A stretch of 64,000 bases of DNA from a virus: positions 1-64,000 of IMG/VR virus record IMGVR_UViG_3300012980_000004, one strand, 5' to 3'. Shown piece by piece: positions 29,302 through 30,403 of this stretch (the first letter of the stretch is position 1; each line of letters opens with the position of its first letter). The notes under the pieces are model-generated. The model made no database searches, was not told where the DNA came from, and was given only the letters and a program-made list of their open reading frames with translations. The position numbers and the translations under genes are program-made.

Positions 29302-29438
29302 GAGGGAGATGGGACTGGGTCCCAATCAGTCGGTAAAACTGATGCTAAACAGCATTTCCGGTATCGCACCTCGACCTTGAAAAGGGTCAAATCCCGCGGT
29401 TCCTACAAGCCTTCTACGTTCGAATCGTAGCTCCCTCA
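29302..29438 (+). ncRNA. tRNA-like RNA A (137 nt) with giant structured variable arm
   Basis: Acceptor GAGGGAG/CTCCCTC. D-arm GGGAC-TGG-GTCCC. Stem-loop TCAGT-CGGTAAA-ACTGA. V-arm has ATCGC(29363-67)/GCGGT(29396-400) plus GACCTT-GAAA-AGGGTC, then CCTACAAGC. T-arm CTACG-TTCGAAT-CGTAG. Confidence 0.7.
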
Positions 29439-29440
29439 CC

Positions 29441-29585
29441 GCTTCGCGCTCAAACGAACAGAACTCACAAGCAAATACGGGTTCGAATCCCGTTGTTTCC
29501 CGCAAGGGAAATATGGCCGAATGGAATAGGCAATCGTCTCGTAAACGATCATAGCGAACCAGTTTTGTTCTCTCGAGCGTGGAGT
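29441..29585 (+). ncRNA. Closed, circularly permuted tRNA-like RNA E (145 nt)
   Basis: A 20-bp terminal duplex (29441-51/29575-85 and 29456-64/29562-70) encloses four arms. These are T-arm ACGGG-TTCGAAT-CCCGT, acceptor TGTTTCC/GGAAATA capped by C-GCAA-G, D-arm GCC-GAATGGAATA-GGC, and stem-loop ATCGT-CTCGTAA-ACGAT. Confidence 0.7.
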
Positions 29586-29590
29586 AATTT

Positions 29591-29722
29591 GCCGGATCAC
29601 AGAGGATCGGTTCCTCACTTCCCATTCAAGGAAAGAAATCCCCAGCATCGCACCTCGCTTCTAGAAATGGAAGCAAACCCCGCGGTTCTTACAAGCTCTC
29701 GGTTCGACTCCGAGATCCGGCG
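29591..29722 (+). ncRNA. tRNA-like RNA B (132 nt) with giant variable arm
   Basis: Acceptor GCCGGAT/ATCCGGC. D-arm GAGG-ATCGGTT-CCTC. Stem-loop CTTCC-CATTCAA-GGAAA. V-arm has ATCGC(29647-51)/GCGGT(29682-86) plus GCTTC-tagaaatg-GAAGC, then CTTACAAGC. T-arm CTCGG-TTCGACT-CCGAG. Confidence 0.7.
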
Positions 29723-29724
29723 CT

Positions 29725-29859
29725 GGAAGTGCTCAAAATTAGTGGAACTTACACGCATCGACCAACGGTAGGTCATCTGTCTACGAAACAGAATGTTACA
29801 GGTTCGAATCCTGTTGCACCTCGAAAGAGGTTTTCCAGTTTCACACCTCGAGCGCTTCC
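29725..29859 (+). ncRNA. Closed tRNA-like RNA F (135 nt)
   Basis: A 10-bp terminal duplex GGAAGTGCTC(29725-34)/GAGCGCTTCC(29850-59) encloses four elements. These are D-arm GACC-AACGGTA-GGTC, anticodon-like arm TCTGT-CTACGAA-ACAGA, T-arm ACAGG-TTCGAAT-CCTGT and capped hairpin ACCTC-GAAA-GAGGT. Confidence 0.6.
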
Positions 29860-29867
29860 GAAACTTT

Positions 29868-29996
29868 GGCGGATAGGGACGTGGGTCCCGCTACCTCTCA
29901 CTAGGGTAATCAAAAACAGTATCGCATCTCGACCCTGCGAGGGGTCAAATCCCGCGGTCCTTACAAGCTTGCTTGGTTCGACTCCAAGATCCGCCT
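29868..29996 (+). ncRNA. tRNA-like RNA C (129 nt) with giant variable arm
   Basis: Acceptor GGCGGAT/ATCCGCC. D-arm GGGAC-GTGG-GTCCC. Stem-loop TACCT-CTCACTA-GGGTA. V-arm has ATCGC(29921-25)/GCGGT(29954-58) plus GACCCT-GCGA-GGGGTC, then CTTACAAGC. T-arm CTTGG-TTCGACT-CCAAG. Confidence 0.7.
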
Positions 29997-29999
29997 CGA

Positions 30000-30245
30000 A
30001 TGAAATCGCATTACCCGGAGTTCGAGGAACATAATAATCCGGACCGTATGGCCATTGAGATTGATTACCGCTGCAGAGCTTGTGGCTCCATAATCAGTGG
30101 AGCTTTCTCAATGAGGTATCCTAATCCTGGACAAGCGGCGAGGCTGATCAAGAATCGTCTAATAGATCAGTTTTTGCGGGACTTTCCGATGGATTGCAAA
30201 GAAGCAAGACTTTTTAATGTATGCTTGGCAGTACACGAGGCTTAA
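30000..30245 (+). CDS. IMES-family-like small zinc-ribbon protein inside the RNA array
   Basis: ATG 30000 chosen to clear RNA C. RCRACG ... DCKEARLFNVCLAVHEA. Confidence 0.55.
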   Translation: MKSHYPEFEEHNNPDRMAIEIDYRCRACGSIISGAFSMRYPNPGQAARLIKNRLIDQFLRDFPMDCKEARLFNVCLAVHEA

Positions 30246-30268
30246 TTGACTTAAAGAAACAAGTTATG

Positions 30269-30403
30269 GGGCAATTACAGGGGATCGGTTCCCCACCTGC
30301 ATTTGGAGCAGGAGCGAAAGCTCCCAGTGTCACGCCTCGGTCCGGTAAAATGGACCAAAATAGTGGCTCTTACAAGCCCCCGGTTCGACTCCGGGATTGC
30401 CCC
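30269..30403 (+). ncRNA. tRNA-like RNA D (135 nt) with giant variable arm
   Basis: Acceptor GGGCAAT/ATTGCCC. D-arm GGGG-ATCGGTT-CCCC. Arm CCTGC-ATTTGGA-GCAGG (TTG). V-arm has GTCAC(30329-33)/GTGGC(30363-67), compensatory to ATCGC/GCGGT, plus GGTCC-ggtaaaat-GGACC, then CTTACAAGC. T-arm CCCGG-TTCGACT-CCGGG. Confidence 0.7.

Follow-up and report, generated by a model that had tools for sequence, protein, structure and literature searches.

What are the four unusual RNAs encoded between positions 29302 and 30403 of a 64,000-nucleotide (nt) stretch of virus DNA (IMG/VR record IMGVR_UViG_3300012980_000004, positions 1 to 64,000; hereafter the window)? The window is part of a huge phage genome, and one of its proteins is 100% identical to a protein on a 393,220-nt contig. 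The RNAs lie within a tRNA island on one strand, where ARAGORN finds 42 tRNAs between 17.9 and 55.5 kb of the window. An earlier note, made from the letters alone, had described RNAs A to D as a family of four tRNA-like RNAs with a giant extra arm between the anticodon and T arms. We found that they belong, together with two further RNAs, E and F, to a family that has a common structure, occurs in three topologies and is linked to a five-gene cassette, one product of which is similar to Ro60 in its modelled fold. In our judgement the chances are even that A to F represent a large, unannotated and huge-phage-specific family of tRNA-derived non-coding RNAs that works like the Y RNAs YrlA and Yrn1. 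The likeness meant here is one of working, not of membership.

Structure of the RNAs and their circular permutations

The coordinates and sequence features that had been given for A to D are all present in the sequence. The four RNAs are 129-137 nt long and combine an open acceptor with a closed arm (type 1, Table 1). Their acceptors differ in sequence from copy to copy and pair at 7/7 base pairs (bp) in each (GAGGGAG/CTCCCTC, GCCGGAT/ATCCGGC, GGCGGAT/ATCCGCC and GGGCAAT/ATTGCCC), and the T loops read TTCGAAT or TTCGACT. The anticodon-like stems of 4-5 bp carry 7-nt loops (CGGTAAA, CATTCAA, CTCACTA and ATTTGGA), of which within the window only the last, that of D, is fully canonical. Between the anticodon-like arm and the T arm stands the common insert CAG(Y)ATCGCA(Y)CTCG-hairpin-CAAA..GCGGT(Y)C(Y)TACAAGC, whose basal helix changes from ATCGC/GCGGT in A, B and C to GTCAC/GTGGC in D through two compensatory pairs. 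The arm of about 50 nt is composed of helix P(a') with 2 bp, a 1x1 mismatch, helix P(a) with 5 bp, an internal loop whose 5' side reads NCUC, and helix P(b) with 5-7 bp, which in type 1 ends in most copies in a GNRA or UUCG loop. The arm is joined to the T stem by a single-stranded tail, YUACAAGC. The pattern CTCG-N10-24-CAAA-N6-12-YTACAAGC occurs four times where 0.03 occurrences are expected, and the minimum free energies (MFE) of A to D have z-scores of -2.9 to -3.4.

Other readings of the conserved letters were considered. YCUUACAA resembles the loop of the tRNA-Val(TAC) at 47403, and was rejected as a true anticodon loop because it has no flanking stem, with 1-3 nt only before the T stem. 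Judged by eye, the conserved positions do not fit a kink-turn, the 11-nt receptor, lambda boxB or an anti-Shine-Dalgarno sequence. In RNA D the discriminator is the first of ten consecutive C residues (30403-30412).

A to D are real members of the family, and the local members number six, E and F having been overlooked in the earlier note. E and F fill the A-B and B-C spacers and contain the same arm in circularly permuted form (types 2 and 3). In both, the 5' and 3' ends pair to form the arm, which is opened at the P(b) loop; its outer helix, P(b), has 10-11 bp and its inner helix 8-10 bp, and the strands of the internal loop between them read (N)CUC (3' strand) and C-AAA (5' strand). In E, P(a) is GAACAGAAC/GUUUUGUUC and the internal loop AAAC/UCUC. 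The arm is followed by CACAAGC, the T arm, a 7-8-bp acceptor-like stem closed by GCAA, the D arm and an anticodon-like arm (CUCGUAA), so that E is a circular permutation of A to D. In F, P(a) is GUGGAACU/AGUUUCAC with the loop AAAAUUA/ACCUC, then UACACGC, and the body keeps the normal order of D arm, anticodon loop CUACGAA and T arm, with an extra hairpin (CCUC-GAAA-GAGG). The acceptor of F is only 3 bp long (GCA/UGC), and for this reason ARAGORN calls a tRNA inside it only and the Rfam tRNA model aligns only over model positions 5-66.

Some 20 RNAs of type 2 and some 25 of type 3 are found in related contigs, and nearly all of these RNAs lie on the same strand. When 22 type-3 RNAs were aligned, 92.1% of the cells were paired, against 35-44% when the strands were slid; the sequences had been picked by a script that demanded at least 6 pairs in both helices, which biases this fraction upward, though not the diversity of pair types. 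All 18/18 pairs of the two arm helices show changes on both sides. The GC of YACAMGC provides nucleotides 1-2 of the inner acceptor of type 3, which spans 3-7 bp (mostly 3-5 bp), and one copy (L060 10902-11038) is built around a complete tRNA with encoded CCA. Since arm and tail recur in three circular permutations and in many phages, the conserved unit is the arm with its tail and the tRNA elbow, and a free acceptor end is optional. The arm occurs with a closed (E) or a truncated (F) acceptor, and the shared function therefore cannot need a free CCA end. In one locus (L027 2023-2116) an arm with a 10-bp outer helix, a 10-bp inner helix, an ACUC loop and UACAAGC encloses a 94-nt RNA without a tRNA-like body; the arm can thus exist without a tRNA.

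Table 1. Positions in the window of the RNAs and their parts, the cassette genes and the endonuclease genes of the tRNA island
Feature	Positions	Strand	Description
RNA A, type 1 (open acceptor, closed arm)	29302..29438	+	R1 match 29353-29438, 78.4 bits
RNA A, acceptor	29302-29308/29431-29437	+	
RNA A, D arm	29311-29323	+	
RNA A, anticodon-like arm	29325-29343	+	CGGTAAA
RNA A, small hairpin	29344-29353	+	
RNA A, arm	29360-29403	+	P(a') GG/CC; P(a) ATCGC/GCGGT; loop ACCUC/AAAUCCC; P(b) GACCUU-GAAA-AGGGUC
RNA A, UACAAGC	29404-29410	+	
RNA A, T arm	29414-29430	+	discriminator A, then CC
RNA E, type 2	29441..29585	+	MFE -49.4 kcal/mol, z -4.3; stem scan; weak Rfam tRNA match 29507-29573
RNA B, type 1	29591..29722	+	loop CAUUCAA; discriminator G; R1 match 29637-29722, 72.3 bits
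RNA F, type 3	29724..29860	+	MFE -48.5, z -4.5; ARAGORN tRNA-Arg(acg) 29751-29822; type-3 alignment
RNA C, type 1	29868..29996	+	loop CUCACUA; P(b) GACCCU-GCGA-GGGGUC; R1 match 29911-29996, 80.5 bits
RNA D, type 1	30269..30403	+	canonical-looking loop AUUUGGA (UUG); small hairpin AGC-GAAA-GCU; P(a) GUCAC/GUGGC; R1 match 30319-30403, 64.9 bits
Probable Ro60-like open reading frame (ORF), 629 amino acids	23546..25435	+	N-terminal beta domain, helical region of ~325 amino acids, C-terminal vWA with invariant DxSxS
p331	25444..26439	+	in 70/76 cassette loci
JAMM/JAB-like metalloprotease	27672..28088	+	motif HSHPGGGVPGPSYTD (HSHPx8SxxD); in 69/76 loci
p90, small conserved protein	28128..28400	+	no C-terminal GG
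ThiF/MoeB-type E1-like adenylyltransferase, 192 amino acids	28681..29259	+	Pfam ThiF 1.4e-20; NCBIfam; in 65/76 loci
GIY-YIG, PD-(D/E)XK and two HNH endonuclease ORFs	15206-16006, 31963-32427, 50207-50824, 50961-51530		across the tRNA island

Homologs in huge phages and the linked gene cassette

IMG/VR was scanned with the pattern TACAAGC-N5-7-GTTCGAMTC, which gave 91 loci (these and the other related loci are numbered with L here), many on contigs of 200-450 kb and several with 2-4 tandem copies. From these, 38 distinct full-length RNAs of type-1 architecture were obtained. In an alignment of arm and T arm, 84.3% of the cells are paired, compared with 37.5-50.8% for slid partners, and double-sided changes were counted in 140 cells against 48.5 in shuffles (0/500). 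The helices are maintained and covary strongly, in agreement with the selection on structure that had been argued from the four local copies. Full-length MAFFT alignments of type 1 misplace the 5' acceptor; the covariance model, R1, was therefore confined to arm and T arm, and the pairing of the acceptor was examined by itself, against a control in which the 3' strand was shuffled. R1 recovers all four copies of the window, at 64.9-80.5 bits, and relatives in huge-phage contigs, with 146 distinct copies across the loci searched. A perfect 7-bp acceptor partner lies upstream of 133/146 (91%), against 12/146 (8%) with the shuffled strand.

Homologs of type 1 are 107-163 nt long (mean 132), and 4-8 paralogs are found per genome. 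The arm has a single, asymmetric internal loop, with NCUC or 4-5 nt on the 5' side and 4-8 nt on the 3' side, between helices of 5-12 bp. The tail variants are TACAAGC (65 copies), CACAAGC (20), TACAAGA (12) and TACACGC (11), with the consensus YACA(A/C)G, a conservation somewhat inflated by the choice of the R1 training set through TACAAGC. When one genome per GTDB species was searched, the matches listed (first 120 stretches) contained one true homolog, on a contig of a 'Sorangium' metagenome-assembled genome; judged by those matches, the family is essentially viral.

Existing tools and records pass over these RNAs. A to D are reported neither by ARAGORN nor by Rfam, even at E<=10, and at this threshold Rfam 15 gives for 29200-30500 a tRNA for F, a weak tRNA for E and nothing else. 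At the gathering score, the window and six related loci yield tRNA and one RNase P RNA and no other family; no ribozyme, riboswitch, Y RNA or transfer-messenger RNA (tmRNA) was matched in the Rfam scans. The region has no relative at the DNA level among GenBank phages, a fragment of a tRNA-Arg being the sole match, and no account of such RNAs came up in searches of the full-text literature. A scan of 28500-31100 for promoters and terminators found no signal above shuffles and none that separates the RNAs.

Upstream of RNA A lies a cassette of five genes (Ro60-like, p331, JAMM, p90 and ThiF/E1-like) whose order is conserved, being kept in 65-70/76 loci that were fetched by the Ro60-like protein alone. 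Across the phages compared, the cassette proteins are 39-66% identical. In the window the RNAs are encoded 3.9 kb downstream of the Ro60-like ORF and on the same strand, and type-1 RNAs are present in 59/76 loci. In the 52 non-redundant loci used for counts of strand and distance, 122/124 type-1 copies lie on the strand of the gene, at a median nearest distance of 3.5 kb. They are found downstream only, after the E1-like gene, in 38 of these 52 loci, and upstream only, just before the Ro60-like gene and down to 241-358 nt from it, in 12 more divergent loci. Loci collected from the RNA pattern alone show the same association, with 19/23 within 10 kb of a Ro60-like gene. The E1-like gene closes the cassette, ends 43 nt before RNA A and is directly upstream of the RNAs in 14/27 loci. 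A ParB-like neighbour, named earlier as a partner candidate together with the vWA and E1 proteins, lies outside the conserved neighbourhood (2/76 loci). Virus Rctr197k (KX853510.1, L212), a relative in GenBank, has the cassette and then unannotated type-2 and type-3 RNAs, at ~21640-21810 (where an additional hairpin precedes the T arm) and ~21965-22105 (with an odd T loop, GTCACAT). The annotation of its Ro60-like gene (11129-13078) is no more than a misc_feature, 'similar to conserved hypothetical protein'.

The first cassette protein was called vWA in the earlier note, and Pfam and PDB sequence searches show the vWA domain only. It has more than 1,500 relatives on huge-phage contigs. In an AlphaFold2 model of it (predicted local distance difference test score 74, predicted template modelling score (pTM) 0.45), the six best Foldseek matches in PDB are full-length Ro60/TROVE proteins: 9kop (4e-8), the Ro60 of phage phiLo (9l5y, 9e-7), 9nep, 1yvr, 2i91 and 1yvp. 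These matches cover 515-549 columns, and vWA-only matches rank behind them, at 2.6e-5 or worse. Full-length matches were also found in BFVD, one of them a phage TROVE-domain protein. A profile of the wider family, searched against PDB, gives human Ro60 at 8e-5 and the phiLo TROVE protein at 0.015 in the helical part, weak and collinear matches. The protein is probably Ro60-like.

Less can be said of the other products. For p331 there was no Pfam or NCBIfam match, no Foldseek match at E<0.1 and no PP-loop motif, and a ubiquitin-like role for p90 is a guess. A role of the E1-like, JAMM, p90 and p331 proteins in tRNA thiolation was considered and is unsupported, as p331 has no PP-loop or fold match and p90 no C-terminal GG.

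A proposed Y-RNA-like function and the alternatives

Bacterial Y RNAs offer the closest model. Almost every YrlA gene is found on the strand of rsr and no more than 4 kb from it; the element order of YrlA is stem, (V), T, closed acceptor and D, with Yrn1 in the opposite orientation, and the YrlA of M. smegmatis is cleaved by RNase P and gains CCA (Chen 2014, PMC4201824). The linkage of the present RNAs to the probable Ro60-like gene agrees with this rule of distance and strand. In phages, a Ro60 binds phage-encoded Y-like RNAs and recruits the host PNPase (PMC12135203). YrlA (Chen 2014, PMC4201824; Wang 2018, bioRxiv 10.1101/312249) shares with the present RNAs a stem/internal-loop module, in YrlA the Ro60 site, joined to a tRNA-mimic module. 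Both are encoded on the strand of a gene of Ro60 type, in the present phages a probable one, at a distance of a few kb and often beside tRNAs. Type 2 (E) has the element order of YrlA, with the acceptor closed by a loop, and the RNase P cut and CCA of M. smegmatis YrlA resemble the ends predicted for type 1. The Yrn1 of Deinococcus, metazoan Y RNAs and Yrl1/Yrl2 of the Thermus phage phiLo (PMC12135203) have, like E and F, a stem-bulge-stem with paired ends; in Yrn1 the T and D arms are oriented opposite to YrlA, as in type 3 (F), and phiLo is a precedent for a phage Ro60 that binds phage Y-like RNAs.

The stem module, the tRNA mimic, the same-strand and probably Ro60-type gene a few kb away and the paired ends of E and F together lead us to propose two modules. 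One would mimic the L shape of a tRNA (with T arm, GG in the D loop, acceptor and anticodon-like arm), the other would be the conserved arm with its tail, YACA(A/C)GC. Arm and tail may be a docking site for the phage's own Ro60-like ring protein (ORF 23546-25435), and the tRNA-like body an effector module that engages a tRNA-binding factor, the paralogs imitating, by this proposal, different tRNA identities. The RNAs are probably excised from a polycistronic transcript of the tRNA island. Type 1 (A to D) would be matured as tRNAs are, by RNase P at the 5' end and with CCA at the 3' end, while types 2 and 3 (E, F) would keep the classical Y-RNA topology, in which paired 5' and 3' ends form the protein-binding stem.

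If the RNAs are Ro60 partners, Y RNAs would extend to a major clade of 200-600-kb phages, and a Ro60 handle could be grafted onto a complete cloverleaf in any circular permutation. To the question of what bacterial Y RNAs use their tRNA-like module for, this family brings a large natural data set of ~150 distinct sequences and ~40 permuted ones, in three topologies and with paralogs that imitate specific tRNA identities. The family is also tied to a compact cassette of five genes, in which a Ro60-like protein is combined with enzymes of the E1-like and JAMM kinds. ARAGORN, Rfam and Pfam are blind to the family, and the one GenBank relative has no annotation for it, which indicates that the 'tRNA islands' of huge phages are under-read.

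Several points weigh against a Y-RNA-like function. The Foldseek template modelling scores (TM-scores) to Ro60/TROVE are low (0.16-0.26), and because of these and of the pTM of the model the Ro60 assignment is probable, not proven. The Pfam TROVE domain is absent both from the ORF and from seven remote relatives of full length (E 1e-20 to 1e-28 against the profile of the family). No Y-RNA covariance model of Rfam 15 was matched, although the presence of a YrlA model in that release was not checked. Inspection of the arms of A to F did not find the GNCGAAN0-1G motif of YrlA, and CUC and YACA(A/C)GC are conserved instead; the nearest approach is AACGAACAG in E, with CGAA at the loop/helix junction, and nothing similar is seen in the others. 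The Ro60 stem of YrlA takes the place of the anticodon arm; the stem of the present RNAs stands at the variable-arm position, and their anticodon arm is retained in full. All these phages belong to a single clade and the cassette is embedded in a tRNA island on its own strand, so that common descent partly confounds the linkage. The RNAs also adjoin the whole five-gene cassette, and another of its proteins could therefore be the partner. Finally, tracking of the discriminator and the CC(A) encoded in half of the copies, described below, suggest that aminoacylation matters, and these signatures keep chargeable tRNAs with a protein handle alive as a serious rival.

Further differences separate the family from known Y RNAs. 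The dominant type 1 combines an open 7-bp acceptor with a closed stem, there are 4-8 paralogs per genome, and the candidate partner has no detectable TROVE sequence signature and an extra N-terminal domain. The paired 5' and 3' ends that in YrlA form a long stem with an internal loop or bulge are present in E and F, and in A to D a tetraloop closes this stem and it is the acceptor that stays open. The GGUCCGA/CGAA-type Ro60 site of Yrn1, metazoan Y RNAs and the phiLo RNAs is not seen here, and those RNAs lack a complete cloverleaf.

The body of type 1 is tRNA-like. When the arm was removed in silico, ARAGORN called 91/127 type-1 RNAs (72%) as tRNAs of 17 isotypes, plus 11 of undetermined type and one with a stop anticodon, against 1/127 intact. 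The Rfam tRNA model reaches its gathering score, at 36-47 bits, on three homologs of 134-138 nt (L278 9323-9458 and 9497-9630; L264 9017-9154), where the arm is treated as an insertion, and misses A to D of the window. All type-1 copies fit the 7/5 acceptor/T-stem geometry, the T loop GTTCRANYC is invariant, GG is found in the D loop of 126/133, and the acceptor stems covary. The second hairpin has a 7-nt loop in 74/127 and an 8-nt loop in 15/127; examples of the latter in L044, L057 and L062 are ATTTAGGA, TTTTTGGA and ATTTTGCA. The 7-nt loops have a purine at position 37 in 70/74, A38 in 57/74 and C or A at position 32 in 68/74. In bacteria, the discriminator base follows identity rules, and the observed pairings of triplet and discriminator agree with them (GTA with A in 9/12, TCC with U in 8/8, GTT with G in 6/7, ACG with A in 3/4, TGG with A in 2/2, CCA with G in 2/2), although some of these correlations may stem from orthology and not from independent events. 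The acceptor is followed by N-CC in 68/133 and by N-CCA in 35/133.

These features favour a view akin to that of the earlier note, in which type-1 RNAs would be working tRNAs that are matured, CCA-ended, charged by synthetases of the host on the basis of anticodon and discriminator, and used in translation or another aminoacyl transfer, with a long variable arm that the ribosome tolerates or a phage factor reads. We consider it unlikely. U33 is found in 39/74 of the 7-nt loops and is missing in 35/74, including 12/12 GTA copies. U8 is mostly absent (present in 39% of type-1 copies, against 78% of the ordinary tRNAs of the window), the D stem has 5-6 bp in 96/133 and the D loop 3-5 nt in 89/133, where a canonical core has 3-4 bp and 7-11 nt. 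The six local triplets (GTA, CGT, TTC, ACG, CAC and TTG) all duplicate those of canonical tRNAs of the window, whose stems are unrelated. The scarcity of U8 and U33, the long D stem and the redundant anticodons are poor features for decoding. Types 2 and 3, moreover, share the arm, yet their closed or 3-5-bp acceptors are not chargeable as such. The tRNA-like character and the extra arm at the variable-arm position stand, and the idea of a new class of giant-variable-arm tRNA is incomplete, because the RNA ends may also lie within the arm, with the acceptor closed (E) or truncated (F), because the D arm departs from the canonical form and some half of the copies lack U33, and because the neighbouring 'vWA' protein is Ro60-like by fold and genomically linked, which points to the way of working known from Y RNAs as tRNA mimics. 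Class II tRNAs, tRNA-Sec and allo-tRNAs do carry an additional arm, a possible protein handle, at the place between anticodon arm and T arm, and A and C have the 5-6-bp D stem and 3-4-nt loop of tRNA-Sec and allo-tRNAs. Known variable arms, however, are simple hairpins of 10-25 nt, while here the arm measures 50-75 nt, with an internal loop and a conserved tail, in a variable region of ~55-75 nt (~24 nt or less in canonical tRNAs), the geometry is 7/5 and not the 8/5, 9/4, 8/4 or 9/3 of tRNA-Sec and allo-tRNAs, U33 and U8 are often missing, and permuted versions exist.

A related possibility is that type-1 RNAs are genuine tRNAs of many identities, loaded by synthetases of the host on the basis of anticodon and discriminator, and that the arm delivers the aminoacyl-tRNA or its body not to the ribosome but to the cassette of Ro60-like, JAMM and E1-like proteins, the unchargeable types 2 and 3 acting as regulators or as competitors for the same protein. 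We hold this to be decidedly improbable. Were type-1 RNAs charged and bound by the cassette, they would form a pool of tRNAs set aside for a non-ribosomal reaction, or for the surveillance of tRNAs in the course of infection, and charged RNAs of this kind would be a new class of tRNA.

The three topologies are those known for disrupted tRNA genes, such as genes with bulge-helix-bulge introns and the permuted genes of archaea and red algae. By this account the arm would be a processing signal (an intron in type 1, the joined permuted ends in type 2 and a leader/trailer stem in type 3), and an endonuclease of phage or host, with a ligase, would cut and rejoin the RNAs to yield tRNAs of ordinary size. 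It fits with type-3 copies that enclose a complete tRNA with CCA, such as that of L060, with the GC of the type-3 tail that belongs to the inner acceptor, and with the ARAGORN-acceptable tRNAs obtained by removal of the arm. Intron-containing, split and permuted genes of archaea and Cyanidioschyzon also have the insertion, the 3' half before the 5' half and the leader/trailer stem. We nevertheless regard it as very unlikely. A bulge-helix-bulge (two 3-nt bulges and a 4-bp helix) is not present, one asymmetric loop being found instead, and neither a splicing endonuclease nor an RNA ligase was found among the 36 window ORFs scanned against Pfam. Excision would leave D arm, U8 and U33 as non-canonical as before, most type-3 acceptors have 3-5 bp, and the products would all be redundant isoacceptors. 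The phages are of bacterial type, and unlike introns the insertion carries conserved sequence. An equally slim chance is given to decoys against host defences or toxins that target tRNAs, in which each paralog would present the anticodon stem-loop of a targeted tRNA, altered at position 33 so as to resist or trap an anticodon nuclease, or the UACA tail would titrate ACA- or UAC-specific MazF-type RNases. Phage tRNAs reportedly evade anticodon nucleases through changes in the loop, many paralogs exist per genome, and the loops keep the triplet and positions 37/38 and lose U33, most strongly in Tyr- and Asn-like copies. Decoys leave the conserved structured arm and the permutations unexplained, and no target nuclease or toxin was identified.

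Least probable of all, and hardly to be expected, is that the arm is a mere processing or stability element (e.g. an RNase III-type stem), or a selfish insertion among tRNA genes, functionless itself. E and F do exactly fill the spacers between type-1 genes, arms are near-identical within a genome (A to C, four copies in L011 and three in L032), and homing endonuclease genes are scattered in the island. Against this, CUC and YACA(A/C)G are (nearly) invariant and both helices covary, though the cassette proteins have diverged to the extent given above, and an arm of ~50 nt encodes no mobility function. With tmRNA, including its two-piece permuted form, the family shares a tRNA-like acceptor/T domain on a long helix and permuted genes; it differs by having no tag frame, pseudoknots or G3:U70 and by a length of ~130 nt against ~350 nt. 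ARAGORN finds no tmRNA in the window, and position 3:70 in A to D is G-C or C-G.

Further elements of the island and of related loci

The GIY-YIG, PD-(D/E)XK and HNH ORFs of the tRNA island (Table 1) are likely homing endonucleases. Two stretches of the window, 49128-49185 and 49904-49986, have weak Rfam tRNA matches (30 and 38 bits) and no ARAGORN call, and may be further odd tRNA-like elements. RNAs C and D are separated by an 81-aa (amino acid) ORF with a CxxC pair (30000-30245), for which no family was matched and which is not shared by related loci. A 1548-aa ORF on the minus strand (9208-13854) consists mostly of collagen triple-helix repeats (Pfam 4.9e-96), and a second ORF, at 42819-44306 (+), combines collagen repeats with a laminin-G-like domain.

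Related loci contain other elements. L002 (~3170-3290) and L077 (~4700-4830) each carry a mini tRNA-like element of ~57 nt without an anticodon arm (acceptor GGAAGAG/CTCTTCC, D arm and T arm), followed by a short element of YTACAAGC and a T arm without the P(b) helix. In L026, L041, L068, L038, L085 and L078 there are short tRNA-like elements of the form ...GCTGTACAGTACAAGC-N-GGTTCGAATCC, which have an acceptor of 6 bp and lack both D arm and anticodon arm. Another element, unrelated, highly conserved and ~130 nt long, was caught solely through the search pattern in L005, L015, L016, L018, L019, L025, L037, L050, L054, L070, L075, L083 and L084. It has a tRNA-Leu-like start (GTGGCGGAATTGGTAGACGCAC), a second tRNA-like stretch and the end GTACAAGC-N-GGGTTCGAATCCC. 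Finally, a 363-kb IMG/VR phage contig (L250) contains, ~2.5 kb downstream of its cluster of tRNA-like RNAs, a complete bacterial class-A RNase P RNA (18026-18390, plus strand; Rfam RF00010, 299.5 bits), which appears to be phage-encoded.

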